Assembly (NCBI GenBank): GCA_029066805.1
Contig: JAIEFT010000013.1
Coordinates: 1,167-65,166, forward strand
DNA: 64,000 bases
Origin: Clostridiales bacterium
GTDB lineage: Bacteria; Bacillota; Clostridia; Christensenellales; Pumilibacteraceae
Reading direction: 5' to 3'
Shown here: piece after piece, positions 47,012-63,754 of the stretch
Layout of the letters: every line of letters begins with the position of its first letter
How positions within the stretch are numbered: position 1 is the stretch's first letter
Notes under the pieces: generated by a model
What the model saw: the letters and a program-made list of their open reading frames with translations, nothing else
Told to the model about the DNA's origin: nothing
The model's database searches: none
Program-made: the position numbers and the translations under genes

Positions 47012-47075
47012 AATAAAACTCCACAATTATGCTTTGGGGAGTGTGCAATACTAATACGTACGGTATTGAACAAAA

Positions 47076-47194
47076 TTCTTTTATCATCCGGACTATACCG
47101 TCGGTTTGGGAATTTCACCCAATCGGGACTGCCTATATAGGCAATCTTAGTGGACTGTCACCACCGGTGGGGAATTCCACCCCGCCCCAAAGAA
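47076..47194 (-). promoter_or_regulatory. FMN riboswitch (RFN element)
   Basis: Minus strand: ttctttGGGGCGGGGTGGAATTCCCCACCGGTGGTgacagtcc...CCCGATTGGGTGAAATTCCCAAACCGACGGTATAGTCCGGATGataaaagaa. Matches the conserved RFN cores and P1 closes ttcttt/aaagaa. Confidence 0.93.
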
Positions 47195-47209
47195 TGTTTA
47201 TTTGCTTGT

Positions 47210-54748: not shown

Positions 54749-55678
54749 ATGCCGATAGATTTTACCAAAAAATTCAACGTCGGATTGACGCTTAAGACGT
54801 CGCTGCGTACCGCCGACAAGTTTTTCGAGCGGTACGGTTCGTACATAAACGAGGTGTATTTTTCCGCGCCGCTCGGCAATCGCTTCCACACGCGCAGGGG
54901 TATACAGCAACAGCTATCCAAAAAACGCATAATAGATAAGTTTTGGAAGCTGCTCGGCTTAGTCAAAAGCCACGGTATCAGACTGGAAATGGTGCTCAAC
55001 ACAAACATGCTGTCCGAGCAGGATATAGAAAGCGCGCGCGACGTGCTTGTCAAACACAACGTAGATATAGATTCGGTGTGCTGTATGGAAGAGTACTACG
55101 ACGCAGTGAAACGTGTGTTCCCCGGCAAGGATTACATCTGTAGCTTCAATAATGTTTTCAGATCGGTCGCCGATATACAAAAGGTACAAAACGAGTACGA
55201 CAGCTATGTGCTCGGCGGCGCGCTCATTCGCGCTAACGACGCGTTTCGCTGCGTGCGCGAACAAAAGCACGCCAAAGTTGTGTTGCTCCTCAACAACGGC
55301 TGTTCGTTCAATTGCCGCGGCTGCCGATCGGCACAGCACTGCAAGCCGGTGTTTATGGCTAACCTGAAAAAGCATTCCGTTGATTATCTGTATGCGTTAC
55401 AGAGCGTGTTGCCGCCGGAAATATACGACGGCAGTATTGACGTGGACAGCGTCGATTACTTTAAGATATCCAATCGTAGCAGCAAGCTTAGCTATCTTAA
55501 AAAGTGTATGGATAGCTATATGACAAATAGCACGCTCAAGTATTTGCGCCGCGGGTTTATGAACTACTCGCTGTGGGCGCGCATGGGGCATTTTTGGTCG
55601 AGGTACATAAAAATCCGCCGCAAAAAAATGCTCGCTTATAAAGCGGAAATACTCGGGCATGAGCTTGAGCTTAAATAA
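54749..55678 (+). CDS. uncharacterised protein with Cys cluster CSFNCRGCRSAQHC; weak peptidase-U32-family resemblance
   Basis: 309 aa. Alternating beta/alpha-like pattern (EVYFSAPLG...HGIRLEMVLNTN...DIDSV) and CX3CX2CX5C at residues 185-198. The family assignment is tentative. Confidence 0.45.
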   Translation: MPIDFTKKFNVGLTLKTSLRTADKFFERYGSYINEVYFSAPLGNRFHTRRGIQQQLSKKRIIDKFWKLLGLVKSHGIRLEMVLNTNMLSEQDIESARDVLVKHNVDIDSVCCMEEYYDAVKRVFPGKDYICSFNNVFRSVADIQKVQNEYDSYVLGGALIRANDAFRCVREQKHAKVVLLLNNGCSFNCRGCRSAQHCKPVFMANLKKHSVDYLYALQSVLPPEIYDGSIDVDSVDYFKISNRSSKLSYLKKCMDSYMTNSTLKYLRRGFMNYSLWARMGHFWSRYIKIRRKKMLAYKAEILGHELELK

Positions 55679-55767: not shown

Positions 55768-55797
55768 TTGACAAAACTCACATACCTAATATATACT
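55768..55797 (+). promoter_or_regulatory. sigma-70-type promoter of the radical-SAM operon
   Basis: TTGACA (55768-55773), 18 nt, TATACT (55792-55797). The first candidate start codon (TTG 55807) is only ~10 nt downstream. Confidence 0.55.
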
Positions 55798-55806
55798 TAA
55801 AGTACT

Positions 55807-56424
55807 TTGATTGACAGAGCGGTGTACGAAATCCCGACCGATCTTGCGGAATATACGGAGCGTATTCGCAGCGGCAACTGGCAGCCCGACGGGCTGACCC
55901 CGCCAAGCGACGGCAATGTTTATACCGCGGCGCTTTTGGTTTTGCGCGGCAGGCTTCGGAGGAAAAGAGCGGTCAAGCGCTTGTTCAAAACGCTTATCGC
56001 ATCGCGTTACATCCGTGATTGTAAGTTAAAGTTTAGGCTGTGCTCCAAACAACCGGCGTACATGACCGACAAAGGGCTTGTGTGCTTTTCGCTCGGCAGT
56101 ATATTCGGCGGCGATGGCGCGCATGTGCTCAAGCTTGTTTTTCACGAAGTCGCGCATTTGTGGCTTAGCGAACAAAACGGTTACGACAGTCTCAAGGCGC
56201 TGCAAAAAGCCTTTCGTGGCGAAAACGGCAACAATGTTCCCGCTGTGTTTTTGCCAATAGAATACTATGCGGTATCGCTGTCGGCAATAATGCTGGAAAA
56301 GCTTTTGTGCGTTCTGCCAAGCGGAACGGAAGCGGCAGATATCACCAATCAAATCAACTGCGAAAAATCCAAACTTGTCGATTTTCGCGACCTGTCCGAT
56401 TGCGGACCAAAGGAGAAACCATGA
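55807..56424 (+). CDS. HExxH-motif protein (putative zinc metallopeptidase)
   Basis: VFHEVAHLWLSEQNGYD. Start uncertain (TTG 55807 or GTG 55822, no clear SD). The stop overlaps the next ATG (ATGA). Confidence 0.55.
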   Translation: MIDRAVYEIPTDLAEYTERIRSGNWQPDGLTPPSDGNVYTAALLVLRGRLRRKRAVKRLFKTLIASRYIRDCKLKFRLCSKQPAYMTDKGLVCFSLGSIFGGDGAHVLKLVFHEVAHLWLSEQNGYDSLKALQKAFRGENGNNVPAVFLPIEYYAVSLSAIMLEKLLCVLPSGTEAADITNQINCEKSKLVDFRDLSDCGPKEKP

Positions 56425-56567
56425 AAGACAACAAGACCACTCAAAAACCTGAGGATTGTGACGAGCTTCTCAAGCAATACTATGCGCAGGTAGACAGCGA
56501 CGACGATGTACATACATATCATATCGACGGATATACTTACGGGGACTATACCGACAGCTGCTGCTAA
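56421..56567 (+). CDS. 48-aa acidic Asp/Tyr-rich peptide ending in Cys-Cys (candidate precursor peptide)
   Basis: AAAGGAGAAACC, then ATG. MKDNKTTQKPEDCDELLKQYYAQVDSDDDVHTYHIDGYTYGDYTDSCC. Same frame as track ORF 56307..56567, but the SD-preceded ATG is at 56421. Confidence 0.65.
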   Translation: MKDNKTTQKPEDCDELLKQYYAQVDSDDDVHTYHIDGYTYGDYTDSCC

Positions 56568-56583
56568 GCCGCTGAATTAGAGC

Positions 56584-57570
56584 ATGTTTGGATATTTCAG
56601 ACCGTATGATGCCGGTCTTACTTGCAGTCAACTAAGGACTTTTCGCGCGTATTATTGTAGACTGTGCTGCGGCTTGCGCAGTATGGGCGGACAGCGTGCG
56701 CGGTTTTTAACAACGTTTGACGCAACCGTATACTATATGATTTACAGCATGGCGAGCGGGTTACCCACACCGCCATCTTTTCGTTGCGAAAAACTTTCCA
56801 AAGCGGGCATGCGCATATCGGAAAAGGACGAGCTTGCCATGCGGTTTGTGCGCGGCATACTTGTAGCACTCGGCGAAAAAATGCGCGACGATCGCTTGGA
56901 CGGCGATAGATTCAAAGCGAATATCCTAAAGCTGATGGTAGGCAAAATCATAAAAAAGGCGCAGGAGTCCGAGCCCAATCTGGCAAGGGTCACTTACGAA
57001 GGGATAGAGCGCATCAATCGTTTGCAAGAGCGCAAGGCGGCGGTGCTCGATTTGCTTGACGCTTACGGGGAAACCATGGCTGACAGCCTGCGCTGTATAG
57101 GCGAAGTGCCTAAAAAATATGAGGAACTTCAAAAGGCGATCGCCGCTTGGACGTTCTATGTGGATATACTTTGCGATTACGACGAGGATGTTAAAACAAA
57201 CAAGTTCAATCCGCTAAAGCAAGACGATTCGCCTACGCTTGAAGTTTTGTTCAACAACGAGTACGCCATGCTTTTCGAGCTTAACCGCACAGTCTGCGGC
57301 AGAGTGGTGGACGCACTTAACGCGACCAAAAACCAAAGCACGGAATGGTACGCTATTCGCGGCATACTCACTCACGCCATGGTAAGCGTCGTGCCCGATA
57401 TATTGGAAGGCAAGGACGTCAAGTTCAAGTACTTCCGCGAGCTAACCAAAAACATGCGCGCCATGAAAAAGAGTCGCAAAAGGTTTGACGAGGCGGACAG
57501 GTATGTTCAACGCACGACGGGCGAGGAGCGGAAAAACGGAAAGGGAGAAAAAGGTGGAGAATCGGATTAG
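56584..57570 (+). CDS. DUF5685-like protein
   Basis: N-terminus MFGYFRPY...YYCRLCCGL is the pattern I associate with DUF5685. Asp-rich motifs DDRLD (56887-56901) and DYDED (57175-57189). Confidence 0.6.
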   Translation: MFGYFRPYDAGLTCSQLRTFRAYYCRLCCGLRSMGGQRARFLTTFDATVYYMIYSMASGLPTPPSFRCEKLSKAGMRISEKDELAMRFVRGILVALGEKMRDDRLDGDRFKANILKLMVGKIIKKAQESEPNLARVTYEGIERINRLQERKAAVLDLLDAYGETMADSLRCIGEVPKKYEELQKAIAAWTFYVDILCDYDEDVKTNKFNPLKQDDSPTLEVLFNNEYAMLFELNRTVCGRVVDALNATKNQSTEWYAIRGILTHAMVSVVPDILEGKDVKFKYFRELTKNMRAMKKSRKRFDEADRYVQRTTGEERKNGKGEKGGESD

Positions 57571-57573
57571 AAT

Positions 57574-58722
57574 ATGGACAGAATAAACATTATTGTAAAG
57601 GTCACGGAGGCGTGCAACCTCAGGTGCAAATATTGCTATAACAAGGATTCGGACTACTCGGCGCAAGTGCTCGGCTTGGAGCGGTTTACCAAGCTTATAG
57701 ATATCGTCGCACCGTACCGCAAGGACATACACATAATCTGGCACGGCGGCGAGCCGCTCACAGCAGGATTAGAGTACTTTGAAAACGCCATGCGCATAGA
57801 GGACGCAGCGCAAACCAAATATCGCGTAACTATAAAGAATCAGATTCAGACCAACGGCACGCTCATTGACAAAAAGTGGATAGAGTTGTTTAAAAAATAC
57901 GACATAAAGCCGGGTATATCGTTTGACGGACTGCAAAACGACAAGTACAGGCAGAGGACGGAAGATACACTAAGGGCGTTTAAGCTTCTCGCCAAAAACG
58001 GTATGCGGTCGGCAGCCATGGCTGTTGTCGCCGACGACGATTACGATATTTTGGAAAACTACAAGTACTTTGCCAAGCTCGGCATCAATGTTGAATTCTC
58101 GCCCGTGTTTGAGGAAGGCGGGGCGGCGGAAATGGGCAGCCGTGCACAGCGGTTTGCCGAAAATATGACGGAGCTTTTCGACTACTGGCTGTACGATAAA
58201 AACGGCGTGGACGTACGCTTGTTCGCTACGTATGTGTCAATGGCGCTTGGTACGAATTTTCGCATTTGCAATAATTCATCCTGTCACGGCAAATATTTGG
58301 GCGTTGCGCCCGACGGCACAATCTACAACTGCGGCAGATACTCGGTCACGCAGTATCCGTTCGGGAATGTGGACGACTTTTCCGATCTTAACGAGATCTA
58401 CCGTTCGGACGGGTTCATGGGGCTTGTTGCGGGCGCGTTCGAGCGTCGGCAAAAGTGCAGGGAGTCTTGCGAGTACTTCAACCTTTGCAGCGGCGGCTGC
58501 ACCGACTGCGCTTTAATAGAAAACGGACTCAACAATATTCCGCAACAGAGCTGCATGTATTTTAAAACGCTGTACCCGCATATCAAGGCGGCGGTCGATA
58601 AGATTCTTGCGGAAAAACAACCGCTCGACGGCTTTAATCCATTTTTCCGCAGAGCGGTAATAAAGAGCTTTGCAGTCACCGACGACGCTACGGGCGCAGA
58701 CATTCAGGATAAGTACAAATGA
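57574..58722 (+). CDS. radical SAM / SPASM-domain enzyme (AnSME-like maturase)
   Basis: CNLRCKYC (CX3CX2C) near the N-terminus. C-terminal SPASM pattern CHGKYLGVAPDGTIYNC ... CRESCEYFNLCSGGC ... C. Confidence 0.88.
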   Translation: MDRINIIVKVTEACNLRCKYCYNKDSDYSAQVLGLERFTKLIDIVAPYRKDIHIIWHGGEPLTAGLEYFENAMRIEDAAQTKYRVTIKNQIQTNGTLIDKKWIELFKKYDIKPGISFDGLQNDKYRQRTEDTLRAFKLLAKNGMRSAAMAVVADDDYDILENYKYFAKLGINVEFSPVFEEGGAAEMGSRAQRFAENMTELFDYWLYDKNGVDVRLFATYVSMALGTNFRICNNSSCHGKYLGVAPDGTIYNCGRYSVTQYPFGNVDDFSDLNEIYRSDGFMGLVAGAFERRQKCRESCEYFNLCSGGCTDCALIENGLNNIPQQSCMYFKTLYPHIKAAVDKILAEKQPLDGFNPFFRRAVIKSFAVTDDATGADIQDKYK

Positions 58723-60218
58723 GCGAAACAACAAGAATACTGCTCGGCTACATTTTGTCGTTTGCATACATGATTTTTGTAATGCTTGTCGGCGAGGTGT
58801 TAAGCCGTAAGCTCGGAGTGGAAAGGGAAATATCACGCAAAATTTCGCACCTGCTGTCAAGCGCGTGCTGGATCATCTGCTATTTCTTTTCCGGTCCGAC
58901 ATACCATACGGTAATCATCAATGCCGCGGCGCTCATGCTGGTCGCGGCGGGCGAGTTCAGCGGCAAACTAAAGTCGGCGGTGCGCGAGGGCGACGGCGGC
59001 GAAGAGCGAAAGTCGAGCAAGGGATTCGGCATGAGCTTTTTTTGCTTTAGCACGTTAGTTGCAATGTGCATAACAGTGTTTGCGTACCCGCAGCTTTTTG
59101 CCACTACCGGCGTGGCATACTACAGCCTCGCGTTGGGCGACGGGCTTGCGCCTATCGGTAAGCGAATAGCCGGCAAGTATAACATCAAGGTGTTCGGCAA
59201 TAAAACGCTCGTCGGCATGATAATGGTGTTTGTCGTGTCGTCGCTCGTTGCCATGACGATAAGCCTTATCTTCGGTCTGGGCTATGACGCGCTGTTCATA
59301 ATATCGCTTGGTGCGCTCGCCGCGGTTGCCGAGCTGATAGGGACGCGCGGTACGGATAATATTCTGGTCGAGTTTTTTGTGTTCGCATATGCGGCGATGT
59401 TTGCTTTCGGCGTAGTGCCGCAGGCGCTCGAGGTAGCCATAATAATAGCCGCGCCCATGTTTGTGGTGGACTCGGTCAAGCAGACGCTCACGCCTGCCGC
59501 CAATATAATATCGTATCTGTACTTGCTTGTTTCGGTGTTTTGCTTGGGATATGTGTTCTTGGTCACGGCGGTATGCCTGTTCGCCGCGGAAGCGGTAATT
59601 TCGCGCGTGACCGGCAAAATATTCAATAGCAAAAATGAGGACGGCGACGCGGAAAAGTCAACGCGCGGCGGCTGGCAGATTTTGGTAAACAGTGTGGTAA
59701 TCATGCTGTTTACACTGCTGCTCCGTGTGCTCGACGTAAGGGCGCTCGCGTTTGTCGCGTTTGCCGTTTTGGTGGAAGAGTTTACCGACAGCGTCGCTTC
59801 GGACGTCGGGCGGCTCGCCAAAAAACCGCCGATAGATATACTCAGGTTCAGGCGCGTCAAGGCGGGCGTAAGCGGCGGAGTAAGCCTGCTTGGGTCTTGT
59901 GCCGCAGTTATTTGCGCGGCGGTCGGTGCGGCATTGCCGTTTGTATTCTTTGCATTCGACATAAGAGCGTACTTTGTAATACTTGGATGTGCGGTGCTCG
60001 GCATGGTTATAGACAGCGTGCTCGGGTCGTCGATTCAGGCGTTATATAAGTGCTCGGTGTGCGGAAAGACGACGGAAAGATCCGAGCATTGCGGTACGGG
60101 CGCAGAGCTTGTCAAGGGTGTAAGGATTGTCAATAACAGCATGGTAAATCTGTTAAGCGCGGTCACAACCGCCGCGATTGCCGTGACGATTTTGATGTGC
60201 TGCGGGATTGCGATGTGA
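58719..60218 (+). CDS. fused polytopic membrane protein: VTE5/dolichol-kinase-like N-half + DUF92 (VTE6-like) C-half
   Basis: N-half: SRKISHLL, LGDGLAPIGKRIAGK, GNKTLVG. C-half: RGGWQILVNS, EEFTDSVASDVGR, GVSLLGS, IDSVLGSSIQ, plus zinc-ribbon CSVCG..HCG. ATGA overlap with the rSAM gene. Confidence 0.7.
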   Translation: MSETTRILLGYILSFAYMIFVMLVGEVLSRKLGVEREISRKISHLLSSACWIICYFFSGPTYHTVIINAAALMLVAAGEFSGKLKSAVREGDGGEERKSSKGFGMSFFCFSTLVAMCITVFAYPQLFATTGVAYYSLALGDGLAPIGKRIAGKYNIKVFGNKTLVGMIMVFVVSSLVAMTISLIFGLGYDALFIISLGALAAVAELIGTRGTDNILVEFFVFAYAAMFAFGVVPQALEVAIIIAAPMFVVDSVKQTLTPAANIISYLYLLVSVFCLGYVFLVTAVCLFAAEAVISRVTGKIFNSKNEDGDAEKSTRGGWQILVNSVVIMLFTLLLRVLDVRALAFVAFAVLVEEFTDSVASDVGRLAKKPPIDILRFRRVKAGVSGGVSLLGSCAAVICAAVGAALPFVFFAFDIRAYFVILGCAVLGMVIDSVLGSSIQALYKCSVCGKTTERSEHCGTGAELVKGVRIVNNSMVNLLSAVTTAAIAVTILMCCGIAM

Positions 60219-60970
60219 TGGGAAAACGCGAAAAACAACTGATAGAAATAGAAAACAGCGACATCGGCATTTTGCGGTTTTGCTTGAAAGTGCTGTACGA
60301 GCACGACAACGACGAGCTTGCTTGGCGGCTGATTGAACGGTTCGGCGGAGTGTCGGGAATTTTCAGCGCGTCTCACGAGGAGCTGATGCAGATCGACGGC
60401 ATGACGGACAGAGTGGCAACGTTTTTCACTGTTATGCGCCCTTTGCAAAGACAGGCGCAGCTTCGCGCCGTAAAGGACTTTAAGGTGACGTCCGAGCGCG
60501 ATATGGCGGAATACGCCGCGGTGTATTTTATGAACGAGTACAACCCTGCGGACGTGTGCGCGTGCTTGGATAAAAGAGGCAGGATTATCTGCGCCGAACG
60601 ACTGGGCAAGGAGGAGTGCGTGCGCGAGATTGCTGCGCTCGCGTGCAAAAGAAACGCGCAAAAGATTGCGCTATTGCGGTTTGAGCCGAGACTGAACAGA
60701 AAGGCAGTGCTGCCCGCGCCCGAAACTCAAAAGACGTTGATGCGGATTACAAAGCTGATTGGGTCGCTGGATATGGACTTTGTGGATTATGTCGAGTATG
60801 CGAAAAATATGTTCTTTTCGCTAAGACGCGCAGTGAGCGGGGATATCGGCGTGTATCATGTTTTTAACGCAAAAGAGGAAAAGTATAAACTGTGGAATAG
60901 TGTTTCCGACGACATTGCCAAGTACTACTCTGTGTGCGTTGCCCACGCGATTGAGCAAGGACTTAAATAA
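60218..60970 (+). CDS. RadC-like protein with degenerate JAB/MPN motif
   Basis: FGGVSGIFSASHEELMQIDGM (HhH-like) and ...CVREIAALACKRNAQKIALLRFEP where RadC normally has HNHPSG. Start at ATG 60218 (TGATG overlap). Confidence 0.6.
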   Translation: MGKREKQLIEIENSDIGILRFCLKVLYEHDNDELAWRLIERFGGVSGIFSASHEELMQIDGMTDRVATFFTVMRPLQRQAQLRAVKDFKVTSERDMAEYAAVYFMNEYNPADVCACLDKRGRIICAERLGKEECVREIAALACKRNAQKIALLRFEPRLNRKAVLPAPETQKTLMRITKLIGSLDMDFVDYVEYAKNMFFSLRRAVSGDIGVYHVFNAKEEKYKLWNSVSDDIAKYYSVCVAHAIEQGLK

Positions 60971-61078: not shown

Positions 61079-61154
61079 CGAGGTGTAGCGCAGTTGGTAG
61101 CGCGCATGGTTCGGGACCATGAGGCCGCGAGTTCGAGTCTCGCCACTTCGACCA
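61079..61154 (+). tRNA. tRNA-Pro (anticodon CGG), CCA encoded
   Basis: Hand-folded cloverleaf: acceptor CGAGGTG/CACTTCG (C1-G72), D stem GCGC/GCGC, anticodon stem CATGG/CCATG with loop TTCGGGA, T arm GCGAG-TTCGAGT-CTCGC, A73, CCA. 76 nt. Confidence 0.9.
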
Positions 61155-61259
61155 GCAGGGCAAAAGCCCACGTAAAAAGGCTATCCTTAACCACAGGACA
61201 GCCTTTTATCATGTGTTTTGACCACTCGCGCGCTCATGATAAATCGTTTTCGGTACGTT

Positions 61260-61282
61260 TTAGTGTCAAAATTAGTGTCAAA
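61260..61282 (+). repeat. tandem 11-bp direct repeats TTAGTGTCAAA x2 (candidate integrase arm sites)
   Basis: 61260-61270 and 61272-61282, with a third degenerate copy aatgtcaat at about 61303. Lies between the tRNA and the int stop. Confidence 0.5.
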
Positions 61283-61306
61283 TACCGGAGCGAATAAACG
61301 GTAATG

Positions 61307-62440
61307 TCAATCGTCGGAGTCCGACGGATCTTCGGCGAACAGAGAATCGAGCTTAGCCGCCTCGGATAAACTTAATTCACGACTAACATCACTGTAAATA
61401 TCAGCCGTAGTACTAATCTCACTATGCCCAAGCCATGTCTGAACTACTTTTATAGGCACTCCTGCTTCTAACGCCCTTGTGGCGAACGTATGCCGAAGAT
61501 CATGCAAGTTATGAGCCGGACAAAACTTTTTAAACTGCCGAGATACATAATCGGACTTAAAATCAAACAGCTTCCCGATGGATGGCAGCACGGATAAAAT
61601 TTTTGATATAGTGTCAAACAAGGGTATTACCCGGTCCGACAATTCAGTTTTTGTGCCGCGAATATGTATTGTCTTTTGTTGCTCGTCTATATCCTCGCGG
61701 CGAACTGCCAAAGCTTCATTCCGGCGACAACCACTATATAGACAAAACAAGTAATAATATTCAAGCTTGTCCCCGCGAATAGCTTGAATAAACTCCGACT
61801 GCTCGGCTACTGAGAGCGCCATGCCTTTATCCCGCTTAGCCTTTACGCGCTTTACGGCAAGCATAGGATTGTAATCTATAAGCCGCTCGGCAACCGCTTG
61901 CCGAAACGCTCCTGTCAAAAGATTATGCACGCTCTCCCGCGTTCGAATAGCTTCTATAGAGCTTAACAGTTTTTGTATATCCATAGGCTTGACTACGGCA
62001 AGCGATATAGCGTTATCTATATGAGGAATAACATGCAGCCGAATATTACGCTCCATTTGCTTGTAAGTCTCGGCGGCGACTTCGCCTTGCTTATATGTGC
62101 GAATAAACTCAGTCAGCCATTCTATGAGAGTGTACTCTGAGGATACGGCTTTGTCTCTAAGCTCTATAGCCTTATTGAGCTTTGTCAAACAATCATCATA
62201 AGCGCGAGCATAAACAGAACGCTGTTTCCCATCCTGCATATACCGCCCCTCATACCGTCCGTCCCTGCGCTGCAATATGCAGCCTTCTTTTGGTTTTTTC
62301 CTACGTGGTGTCATGATTAAGATTTTATCCCTCCGTTCCTGTACTTCGATGTCGATATCGTTCAAAAGCGACACGAGCTTAAACGCTATCTTGTTGAGCT
62401 GTTCGGCATATTGCCGAATTAGTTGTTCATTTGTATTCAT
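61307..62440 (-). CDS. int: tyrosine-type site-specific integrase
   Basis: C-terminal HDLRHTFATRALEAGV...LGHSEISTTADIYSDV (R..HxxR..Y). Start at ATG 62440 behind GGAGGT. Confidence 0.9.
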   Translation of the reverse strand: MNTNEQLIRQYAEQLNKIAFKLVSLLNDIDIEVQERRDKILIMTPRRKKPKEGCILQRRDGRYEGRYMQDGKQRSVYARAYDDCLTKLNKAIELRDKAVSSEYTLIEWLTEFIRTYKQGEVAAETYKQMERNIRLHVIPHIDNAISLAVVKPMDIQKLLSSIEAIRTRESVHNLLTGAFRQAVAERLIDYNPMLAVKRVKAKRDKGMALSVAEQSEFIQAIRGDKLEYYYLFCLYSGCRRNEALAVRREDIDEQQKTIHIRGTKTELSDRVIPLFDTISKILSVLPSIGKLFDFKSDYVSRQFKKFCPAHNLHDLRHTFATRALEAGVPIKVVQTWLGHSEISTTADIYSDVSRELSLSEAAKLDSLFAEDPSDSDD

Positions 62441-62485
62441 ATACTTTACCTCCATGGGCAAAGTATAACGATATAAATTTAAACT

Positions 62486-63754
62486 TTAAAACGGATGCTC
62501 AAGCTTATCAATTTCGCGACATTCCTCGAGCCATGCCCTAAATAAACGCTTGGATATAAACGTAATATTCTTATTCTTTAAATCATGCATTAGCTTTTCC
62601 AGCTCCACAGAAGTATTTACTTCGGGTTTTTCAAACAGCCTTAGCCTTGCTAAAACTTCGGCATAAGCTTCCTCGACACTAGCATCCACCTCGTCGTTTT
62701 CGGCAACACGGTACAACAAACCATACCCTTGCATGACCTTGCAGCGATACAACACGCTATACAACACTTTAAACTGTTCATAAGTAAGAAACGCCGCGCC
62801 GTCTTTGGTAAGCTTAGTCACATACTTAAATACCTCGTGCCAACCGTCGTCCTCAACTTCATTAAGTGTGCAGCTGTAGCCGTCCGGCATAGTGGATATG
62901 TTCTCAAGATTGACCTTTGTATTATTTAAAGCTAAAAACCATATCTTTTGTATGAGAATCTCAAGCTCGGAAAATATACGCTCAAGCTTGCCGTGATTGA
63001 AGCTGTAGCAATTAACGAACTCCTTATAAAGCGGCAAGTCTTTTTTTAAAAGTATGGCACTATGTATATGCGGATGAAAGTCCGTAGGATTCGTGACTAT
63101 TTCCAAACACCGAACCGCGCCACCATATCCGTACTGCGCAAAATCCACACCTTTTATTTTTGCGTCGCCGGAGAAGTAGCGAATAAGCTTTTTAAAAGCA
63201 TTAAACATACTGCCCACTGTTTTTTCTAATACGGTGCCGCCAACGTTTGGAACAGTTAAAGTCAAGTGATATAAATCATATGTATTACGCAGTTCGTCAA
63301 ACACCGGAGTGAATCGCATAAGCCGGGAAGCTTGCTTAAGGTGCTGACAGTTCACGCAGAATTTATCATGACAGAGCTGTACGTTCTTTACGTCAAAAAC
63401 TCGCTGAAGGCGGTAGTGATCACCAAACCAAAACTTGTTGCAATTATGTACACGCTCGCCAAGAGTCCGATACTTATTAAGATTTGTCTCGGTATATAGC
63501 CGCTCGTAATACTCGCTGTAAATATCATTGAAATCGCGATTATGCGAAACGGTATCAACATAATCTTCGGTAATCTTGAGTTCTTCCGGAATTTCATAAT
63601 ACAAATCATTGCCGACAGCTCGTTCGGCTTGACGCTCGTGCTTAAGCTGCTCTGCTTGTGCCGACAAAATCTTCCGTTTACGCGCACCATTCTCGCGTGC
63701 CTTTGCAAGCCTTGCTGCACGTTGTGCGGATTTCTTGAACTCCCCAAGTTTCAT
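62486..63754 (-). CDS. rep: rolling-circle replication initiator (Rep_1/pC194-pUB110-like HUH protein)
   Basis: HUH motif DFHPHIHSAILL and downstream EVFKYVTKLTK (catalytic Tyr motif). GGAGA SD. Confidence 0.75.
   Translation of the reverse strand: MKLGEFKKSAQRAARLAKARENGARKRKILSAQAEQLKHERQAERAVGNDLYYEIPEELKITEDYVDTVSHNRDFNDIYSEYYERLYTETNLNKYRTLGERVHNCNKFWFGDHYRLQRVFDVKNVQLCHDKFCVNCQHLKQASRLMRFTPVFDELRNTYDLYHLTLTVPNVGGTVLEKTVGSMFNAFKKLIRYFSGDAKIKGVDFAQYGYGGAVRCLEIVTNPTDFHPHIHSAILLKKDLPLYKEFVNCYSFNHGKLERIFSELEILIQKIWFLALNNTKVNLENISTMPDGYSCTLNEVEDDGWHEVFKYVTKLTKDGAAFLTYEQFKVLYSVLYRCKVMQGYGLLYRVAENDEVDASVEEAYAEVLARLRLFEKPEVNTSVELEKLMHDLKNKNITFISKRLFRAWLEECREIDKLEHPF

Follow-up and report, generated by a model that had tools for sequence, protein, structure and literature searches.

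A conserved gene cluster of gut bacteria predicted to encode a radical SAM-modified and perhaps prenylated peptide

In the peptide prenyltransferases that resemble the trans-type synthases of isoprenyl diphosphates (trans-IDS), such as ComQ, PalQ, and ChrPC, an isoprenoid-fold enzyme transfers a C10–C20 prenyl group from its diphosphate to a peptide, and in all characterised members the acceptor is tryptophan (PMC13290415). Here we describe a gene cluster from a Clostridiales bacterium, located in a 64,000-nucleotide stretch of contig JAIEFT010000013.1 (the window), in which a gene for a 48-amino-acid (aa) candidate precursor peptide lies among genes for a protein with an HExxH motif, a DUF5685 protein, a radical S-adenosylmethionine (SAM) enzyme of the SPASM type, and a membrane protein that combines two kinase-like domains. 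We consider it very likely that this is a genuine peptide-modification system. Among described systems, the nearest in its presumed mode of action would be ComQ/ComX, along with the more recent trans-IDS-like prenyltransferases, with a short precursor gene standing beside the gene for a candidate enzyme that carries Asp-rich motifs and has, in its structural model, a putative isoprenoid fold. Yet it is no member of that family, because the DUF5685 protein has no detectable sequence relationship to polyprenyl synthases, most of the precursors here lack the Trp that serves as the acceptor there, and its partners, a radical SAM/SPASM enzyme and a dedicated prenol-to-prenyl-diphosphate kinase fusion, are new. 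The cluster also differs from ComQ/ComX in lacking a sensor of the ComP/ComA type.

Prenylation of C-terminal cysteines is characteristic of Rab proteins, at CC or CXC, and of CaaX proteins, and yeast a-factor derives from a short precursor that is prenylated and is trimmed by the M48 protease Ste24. The peptides described here resemble these substrates in that a Cys doublet or triplet is invariant at the C-terminus of their cores, and the HExxH protein is weakly similar to M48 proteases and minigluzincins. However, the eukaryotic prenyltransferases are alpha-alpha-barrel heterodimers with a catalytic zinc ion rather than class-I isoprenoid-fold enzymes, and the cluster encodes no homologue of them, of Rce1, or of ICMT; S-prenylation is something that we infer here by likeness.

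Two further groups of known enzymes bear comparison. The maturases of dynobactin (DynA), darobactin (DarE), and the triceptides (XyeB, GrrM, FxsB, AmcB, and YhhB) include some of the best named relatives of the radical SAM enzyme, namely DynA, GrrM, and AmcB, and the repeated aromatic-x-x and His-x-Tyr/Phe motifs of the peptide cores presumably resemble the substrates of such enzymes. The scores here, however, reach only about one third of the respective cutoffs, and those systems have neither DUF5685, nor prenol kinases, nor a terminal CC(C). The membrane protein, for its part, contains the same two domains, a predicted one of the CTP_transf_1 type and DUF92/COG1836, as VTE5/FOLK and VTE6 of plants and cyanobacteria (PMC9782597), and its genomic company is isoprenoid-related; it differs in that the two domains are fused in one polypeptide, occur in non-photosynthetic gut anaerobes, and are dedicated to a peptide cluster.

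All genes of the cluster lie on the forward strand of the window. The gene for the HExxH protein (55807–56424; 205 aa, starting at TTG and containing the sequence FHEVAH) overlaps the precursor gene (56421–56567; 48 aa), which encodes MKDNKTTQKPEDCDELLKQYYAQVDSDDDVHTYHIDGYTYGDYTDSCC and is preceded by a Shine–Dalgarno sequence, AAGGAG (56410–56415), 5 nucleotides (nt) ahead of its ATG. Next come the DUF5685 gene (56584–57570; 328 aa, matching PF18937), the radical SAM/SPASM gene (57574–58722; 382 aa, matching Radical_SAM), and the membrane fusion gene (58719–60218; 499 aa), the two domains of which are an N-terminal half of the CTP_transf_1 superfamily (58719–59453), judged to be polyprenol/phytol/dolichol-kinase-like by profile–profile comparison, and a C-terminal half (59454–60218) that matches PF01940 (DUF92; VTE6/COG1836) and is polyprenyl-phosphate-kinase-like. 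A neighbouring gene for a degenerate RadC-like protein (60218–60970; 250 aa counted from its ATG) follows. The HExxH and precursor genes meet in an ATGA (56421–56424), gaps of 16 nt (56568–56583) and 3 nt (57571–57573) precede the DUF5685 and radical SAM genes, respectively, a second ATGA (58719–58722) joins the radical SAM gene to the fusion gene, and a TGATG (60216–60220) joins the latter to the RadC-like gene. An earlier note on this DNA had placed the six open reading frames (ORFs) and their coupled junctions in just this way, and all of its coordinates were re-read correctly; its account of the second ORF as a 48-aa acidic peptide with a strong Shine–Dalgarno sequence likewise agrees with the AAGGAG that we read directly.

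The putative sigma-70-like promoter (TTGACA, 18 nt, TATACT; 55768–55797, forward strand) also lies where it had been proposed. It matches the consensus at 11 of 12 positions, the joint best match between 53000 and 62600, and both hexamers are kept in locus L001, a relative whose DUF5685 protein is 76% identical. In L001 as in the window, only about 10 nt separate the −10 hexamer from the TTG at which the HExxH gene starts, a spacing so short that the mRNA would be nearly leaderless and begin with a non-AUG codon, unless the start is mis-assigned or transcription sets out further upstream. No terminator-like site was seen between the block led by the HExxH gene and the preceding gene, which encodes a 309-aa protein with four conserved cysteines (54749–55678, forward strand).

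Using the DUF5685 protein, the 499-aa membrane protein, and the radical SAM enzyme as seeds, we collected 16 distinct loci from metagenome-assembled genomes (MAGs) of Clostridiales, Christensenellaceae, Pumilibacteraceae, Oscillospiraceae, and Erysipelotrichaceae that originate from human gut and from goat or buffalo caecum, and determined gene occupancy from a tblastn map together with all-against-all clustering of the neighbouring ORFs. The DUF5685 and radical SAM genes are present in 16 of 16 loci, the membrane fusion (about 485 aa) in 15, the sixteenth being cut by a contig end, the HExxH protein in 14, and the uncharacterised 309-aa protein in 7. In most loci the DUF5685, radical SAM, and fusion genes overlap by 4–16 nt, and in L003, L021, and L028 the gene order is rearranged, the fusion gene being divergent and upstream. 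The flanks are unrelated between loci and include genes for DnaB, xanthine permease, phospholipase D, ferritin/desulfoferrodoxin, seryl-tRNA synthetase, and chromate transporters. Because the same set recurs in 16 loci with different flanks, the cluster is a conserved unit rather than a chance operon. No other gene recurs near the 16 loci, be it an ABC transporter or exporter, a methyltransferase, a regulator, an immunity gene, or a sulfatase. The co-conservation of precursor, radical SAM enzyme, and DUF5685 protein supports the original proposal of a locus for a peptide made on ribosomes and modified after translation (RiPP) with an accessory set that matches no known class, and the two traits ascribed to that set, a kinase fusion that accompanies the other genes across genomes and the lack of an ABC exporter, recur as well. 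We found no description of this gene set in the literature searched (DUF5685; radical SAM RiPPs with prenol kinases; triceptides with prenylation).

The peptides themselves form one family. Seventeen homologues of 43–56 aa were found in the 16 loci, and in all of them the stop codon comes directly after a final CC or CCC. In every locus where the region is present, one or two precursor ORFs lie directly upstream of the DUF5685 gene, with two copies in L003 and L017, and some of these ORFs had been missed by gene callers; a conserved small ORF thus accompanies the homologous radical SAM/DUF5685 genes wherever the upstream region can be assessed, as the RiPP proposal entails. The aligned peptides share a Lys/Glu-rich N-terminus and a leader motif, (L/I/V)(L/M)xxYxxQ, and their cores are acidic and rich in His, Tyr, and Asp, often with the sequence H-x-(Y/F/H)-x-H-V-D-(G/W)-Y; Trp occurs in only 3 of the 17. 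The 48-aa peptide of the window, which has no Pfam or NCBIfam match, is Lys-rich at its N-terminus, contains LLxxYxxQ, has an acidic core rich in His, Tyr, and Asp, and ends in CC. The gene arrangement typical of a RiPP locus, a short precursor gene next to the genes for modifying enzymes, with a leader that is conserved and a core that varies, is found here, and the precursor gene always adjoins those for the DUF5685 protein and the radical SAM enzyme.

The radical SAM enzyme carries the motif CNLRCKYC (C15-x3-C19-x2-C22) and eight conserved C-terminal cysteines, matches Pfam Radical_SAM at E = 8.7e-20, and has many homologues that match the SPASM domain PF13186, which upholds its initial reading as a full SPASM-type enzyme. 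Its core begins at residue 9, and there is no N-terminal RiPP recognition element (RRE) domain. It scores below the curated cutoff of every named equivalog in NCBIfam: in bits, with the cutoff in each case after the stroke, DynA 167/450, GrrM/OscB 135/310, AmcB 117/425, and PapB 113/340, then YhhB 94/445, DarE 91/650, XyeB 85/450, and FxsB 80/370, the alignments being full-length for the best of these. The maturases of mycofactocin and QhpD, whose NCBIfam names mark them as cofactor-type, come far down the ranking from the top matches. Anaerobic sulfatase-maturating enzymes (anSME) score as high as DynA (166.8 bits against a cutoff of 349.45), and the enzyme here resembles them in size, in the lack of an RRE, and in its eight-Cys SPASM region. 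The substrate motif of anSME is C/S-x-P/A-x-R, and the partner here is a short peptide unlike such a substrate. We rejected a role as a sulfatase maturase, since the anSME score falls short of the cutoff and all 16 neighbourhoods lack a sulfatase gene; in this, too, the enzyme accords with the RiPP proposal. At least 120 clusters of homologues (90% identity clustering) were found, 45–100% identical to it. Because all named matches lie far below the curated cutoffs, the enzyme is, as judged from sequence, a new subfamily in the anSME/cyclophane/dynobactin neighbourhood. It may form aromatic-to-C-beta, His–Tyr, or Cys thioether cross-links, and the His/Tyr-rich core motifs would favour a cyclophane or dynobactin-like cross-link.

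The C-terminal half of the membrane fusion matches PF01940 (DUF92) at E = 6.3e-36 over residues 246–485 (124.5 bits; cutoff 27.5), and DUF92 is the VTE6/COG1836 family, which includes phytyl-phosphate kinase (PMC9782597). For the N-terminal half, an hhalign comparison of a 13-sequence profile with the corresponding half of P0074, a homologue from Bifidobacterium, gave 99.4% probability and E = 4e-21, and P0074 itself passes PF01148 (CTP_transf_1; 28.3 bits, cutoff 24), the family that contains phytol, farnesol, and dolichol kinases; three of the 13 relatives match PF01148 directly. Invariant residues in this half are R40-K41-x2-H44, G140-D141-G142, and D213-N214, with K162 nearly so. The first description of this protein as fused isoprenol kinases is thus supported, by a direct match for DUF92 and by profile–profile comparison for the predicted N-terminal kinase. 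All fusions associated with the cluster also carry, within DUF92, a conserved, zinc-ribbon-like C-x2-C...T-E...H-C-G insert (window 60045–60120, residues ~443–468), and there is no such Cys pair in the corresponding stretch of P0074.

The wider genomic company of the fusion is in keeping with isoprenoid metabolism. In Bifidobacterium, a copy lies directly after CrtI-like and SQS_PSY genes (L032:2469-6455), the products of which consume prenyl diphosphate, and a distant copy on another Clostridia contig lies beside IspD and IspF (L031:3916-7437). The company kept by these copies suggests that bacteria in general use the CTP_transf_1–DUF92 fusion to supply prenyl diphosphate. In addition, an UppS-like cis-prenyltransferase gene occurs inside the cluster in two loci, one from Oscillospiraceae (L028:3569-4267) and one from Erysipelotrichaceae (L021:7585-8265); the two are 46% identical, have the motif MDGNGRWA, and occupy different positions in the cluster.

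The product of the third ORF was confirmed as a DUF5685 protein, with a PF18937 score well above the gathering cutoff (90.3 against 26.7 bits; residues 1–251, profile positions 1–255 of 272) and no other Pfam match in its 328 aa. It represents a divergent subfamily, 22–24% identical to a canonical member. In an alignment of 11 sequences, C25, C28, C68, K99, and a DDxxD motif (D102-D103-x-x-D106) are invariant, as are D194, D198, D202, and N209, which belong to a second motif, D194-x3-D198-x-D200-x-D202...N209; in sequence, then, the protein has the two Asp-rich, metal-binding-type motifs of the class-I isoprenoid superfamily. The AlphaFold (AF2) model is all-helical (pLDDT 86.7, pTM 0.82) and places both Asp clusters at helix C-termini. 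When it was compared with the PDB using Foldseek, at least 47 of the top 50 matches were prenyl-diphosphate enzymes, and the matches include MoeN5 (probability 1.0, TM 0.43–0.53), Rv0562 and other isoprenyl diphosphate synthases, UbiA, Ord1, and terpene synthases. Motifs and model together incline us to regard the DUF5685 protein as isoprenoid-synthase-like and prenyl-diphosphate-binding. Because of this putative fold it probably consumes the product of the fusion kinases, which would tie together an otherwise odd accessory set. The literature searched assigns no function to DUF5685, and the family is mentioned there once, in an in silico survey of uncharacterised C. difficile proteins.

The HExxH protein completes the set. 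Residues H113, E114, H117, and E152 are invariant in 14 homologues, and the protein of the window has no Pfam or NCBIfam match. Below threshold, 4 of 14 members resemble Peptidase_M48 (best 1.1e-4) and 8 of 14 SprT-like, with WLM also appearing, and the matches in the PDB are weak (minigluzincins and HtpX, E = 0.045–0.58). Taken together, a soluble zinc-metallopeptidase-like protein of the HExxH...E type is plausible, and such a protein is a candidate leader peptidase.

From the gene order, coupling, domain identities, and conservation of the set, all of which are observed, we infer each of the following chemical steps. The 48-aa precursor would be bound through its LLxxYxxQ leader, and the radical SAM/SPASM enzyme would abstract a hydrogen atom from the His/Tyr/Asp-rich core and install at least one cross-link, perhaps of the aromatic-to-C-beta (cyclophane), His–Tyr, or thioether kinds that its nearest named relatives form. 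The membrane fusion would phosphorylate a free polyprenol in two rounds, first to polyprenyl phosphate and next to polyprenyl diphosphate, and the DUF5685 protein, with Mg2+ held by its Asp motifs, would ionise the latter and prenylate the peptide. If Rab CC/CXC and CaaX proteins are a guide, the likeliest acceptors would be the invariant C-terminal cysteines. The HExxH...E metallopeptidase would cut off the leader, and the product would probably remain in or on the membrane, since no exporter is encoded.

We suggest this scheme, a RiPP in which the radical SAM enzyme cross-links the peptide and an isoprenoid lipid is attached to it, as one that has about an even chance of being right; that the isoprenoid ends on the peptide we would put at roughly the same level, and its attachment to cysteine is distinctly more doubtful. 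Equally tentative is the most specific form of the proposal, a bacterial counterpart of Rab prenylation in which this DUF5685 subfamily S-prenylates the terminal CC or CCC of the cross-linked peptide with a donor made by the fusion kinases, to give a membrane-anchored lipopeptide. Such a His/Tyr/Asp-rich lipopeptide would possibly be a metal-binding or redox cofactor in these strictly anaerobic gut Clostridia.

Several observations weigh against prenylation of the peptide. The fold match of the DUF5685 protein is weak, with a best Foldseek E-value of 1.4e-2 and none at 1e-3, TM-scores of about 0.5, and root-mean-square deviations of 6.5–7 Å. An hhalign comparison of the DUF5685 profile with Escherichia coli IspA gave 0.3% probability and one with SQS_PSY of Bifidobacterium 0.07%, and a profile search of the PDB returned nothing relevant, only designed helical repeats. 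The gene for a canonical DUF5685 protein (24% identical) adjoins one for a DnaJ-domain protein and not isoprenoid or radical SAM genes. The N-terminal half of the window fusion has no direct Pfam match. Finally, the prenyl acceptor is a guess, and the terminal cysteines could instead be thioether donors for the radical SAM enzyme or metal ligands. A likeness of DUF5685 to SQS/PSY, suggested by the motifs, was dropped for lack of support at the sequence level in the negative hhalign comparison, and a PDB sequence search with the N-terminal kinase-like domain of the fusion gave nothing relevant.

The context of the canonical DUF5685 gene was seen in L023–L026, where it (L023:6001-6822) follows Rrf2 and patatin genes and is translationally coupled to the gene for a DnaJ-domain protein of 215 aa, with no radical SAM or peptide gene linked to it. 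Genes of the wider family therefore occur in at least two different genomic settings, and the DUF5685 proteins linked to radical SAM enzymes thus form a specialised branch. An orphan DUF5685 gene of the radical SAM-linked type (L020:7001-7909; 40% identical) was also found in a Clostridia MAG, with no precursor, radical SAM, fusion, or HExxH gene within 7 kb.

The points listed above for DUF5685, a weak fold match and negative sequence comparisons, would sit more easily with a RiPP made by the radical SAM enzyme without prenylation, in which cyclophane or thioether links are formed, perhaps with the terminal cysteines as sulfur donors, the DUF5685 protein is a non-catalytic leader-binding or scaffold protein, and the fusion serves some other role, for instance in immunity, membrane remodelling, or lipid-carrier recycling. 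The lack of an RRE in the radical SAM enzyme makes a separate leader-binding protein plausible, and the DUF5685 and radical SAM genes are always adjacent and overlapping. PapB makes Cys–Asp thioethers, and a PapB-type ranthipeptide maturase is among the matches of the enzyme; the cores here are Asp-rich with Cys at the end. We nevertheless consider this account rather unlikely, as it leaves unexplained the prenol kinase fusion in 15 of 16 loci and its translational coupling to the radical SAM gene, the recruitment of a cis-prenyltransferase on two occasions, and the invariant DDxxD and second Asp cluster of DUF5685.

A further possibility, which overlaps in part with that scheme and which we also rate as improbable, is that the product is a peptide-derived, prenylated, membrane-bound cofactor or metallophore. 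The precursor would be a sacrificial scaffold, as with pyrroloquinoline quinone (PQQ) and mycofactocin, and a few core residues (His, Tyr, Cys) would be turned into a redox-active or metal-binding moiety with a prenyl tail for use inside strict anaerobes. In favour of this reading, the surroundings of the 16 loci share no gene for export, immunity, or regulation, and the cluster lies amid housekeeping genes (DnaB, seryl-tRNA synthetase, ferritin, rubrerythrin). The core is rich in His, Tyr, Asp, and Cys, with an invariant His, an invariant Asp, and the terminal CC, and the 309-aa four-Cys protein might act as a tailoring enzyme that needs no oxygen. Among the radical SAM matches, the maturases of mycofactocin and QhpD do appear, as the only cofactor-type names and at the low rank given above. 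However, core sequence and length vary considerably by lineage and some loci have two different precursors, which is more typical of natural-product RiPPs than of cofactor precursors, and the neighbourhoods conserve neither a partner dehydrogenase nor any other obvious client enzyme. An incidental operon, in which the small ORF is no substrate and lies beside a radical SAM gene and a lipid kinase gene by chance, draws on nothing beyond the caution that ORF lists and consensus promoters prove no function, and is effectively refuted, at a vanishingly small residual likelihood, by the recurrence of the set in 16 loci of several families with unrelated flanks, rearranged order, and overlapping stop and start codons, and by the leader motif and terminal CC(C) that the peptides share.

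The 309-aa protein, which the earlier note omitted, has no Pfam or NCBIfam match and belongs to a family with 174 representatives among 1.84 billion proteins. Its gene adjoins the cluster in the 7 loci that have it, in L006 and L028 overlapping the HExxH gene, and on these comparative grounds we take it to be an accessory member of the system. Its motif is LLLNNGC-x3-C-x2-C-x5-C and follows a predicted alternating beta/alpha region; across 71 sequences C185, C189, and C198 never vary, and C192 is nearly invariant; the single-sequence model has a pLDDT of only 40.8, and in a PDB sequence search with the family the best match was a TIM barrel at E = 0.25, with nothing relevant found. The protein is probably a beta/alpha-barrel metalloenzyme or Fe–S enzyme. 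About 20 longer representatives of the family (among P0200–P0228) have 476–600 aa, with C-terminal extensions of ~170–290 aa in which we found no Pfam domain, no fused HExxH domain, and no similarity to the HExxH protein.

At the other end of the cluster, the description of the last ORF as a degenerate RadC holds in so far as the protein is RadC-like below threshold, with 20.7 bits in Pfam (cutoff 22.1) and 41.3 against PRK00024 (cutoff 180). A His-x-His motif, which binds metal, is expected in the JAB domain of RadC, and there is none in the stretch aligned to that domain (residues 91–204). The inclusion of the gene in the cluster did not hold: it occurs only in the window and its closest relative (L001/L002), and we rejected it as a member of the system for that reason. 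It is followed in the window by a tRNA-Pro gene and an integrase element; the region 61079–63754 contains tRNA-Pro(CGG) on the forward strand and, on the reverse strand, genes for a tyrosine integrase (61307–62461) and a 422-aa Rep-like protein (62486–63754). L001 has an integrase gene and a gene with a weak REP_ORF2-G2P match at the matching position 3' of its RadC-like gene. The region has the look of a small element that integrated at a tRNA gene and that borders the cluster yet is separate from it. That the cluster is cargo of the element was rejected, given that the other loci have no integrase and that the tRNA-Pro gene lies between the two. Elsewhere in the window, an FMN riboswitch was found on the reverse strand (47072–47198; Rfam 109.9 bits, E = 1.1e-24). 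In L028, a region directly 3' of the cluster (L028:8439-14157) holds genes for a PqqD-like protein (115 aa), a PA14 protein (1433 aa), and a ScmC-like protein as well as an ORF of 83 aa, and may be a second, unrelated peptide-maturation locus.

We suggest that the system is a radical SAM RiPP with a new, probably isoprenoid, tailoring module, and it could prove to be a new RiPP class. If the Rab-like proposal is true, it would give DUF5685 its first function, provide the first VTE5/VTE6-type kinases that serve a peptide pathway, and reveal the first non-Trp acceptor for an isoprenoid-fold peptide prenyltransferase. The cluster lends itself to direct testing as a way towards a new RiPP class or lipidation chemistry, two or three orphan families (DUF5685, the 309-aa four-Cys protein, and the HExxH protein) could gain functions through it, and its product would be one made by abundant yet uncultured Clostridia of the gut and rumen.

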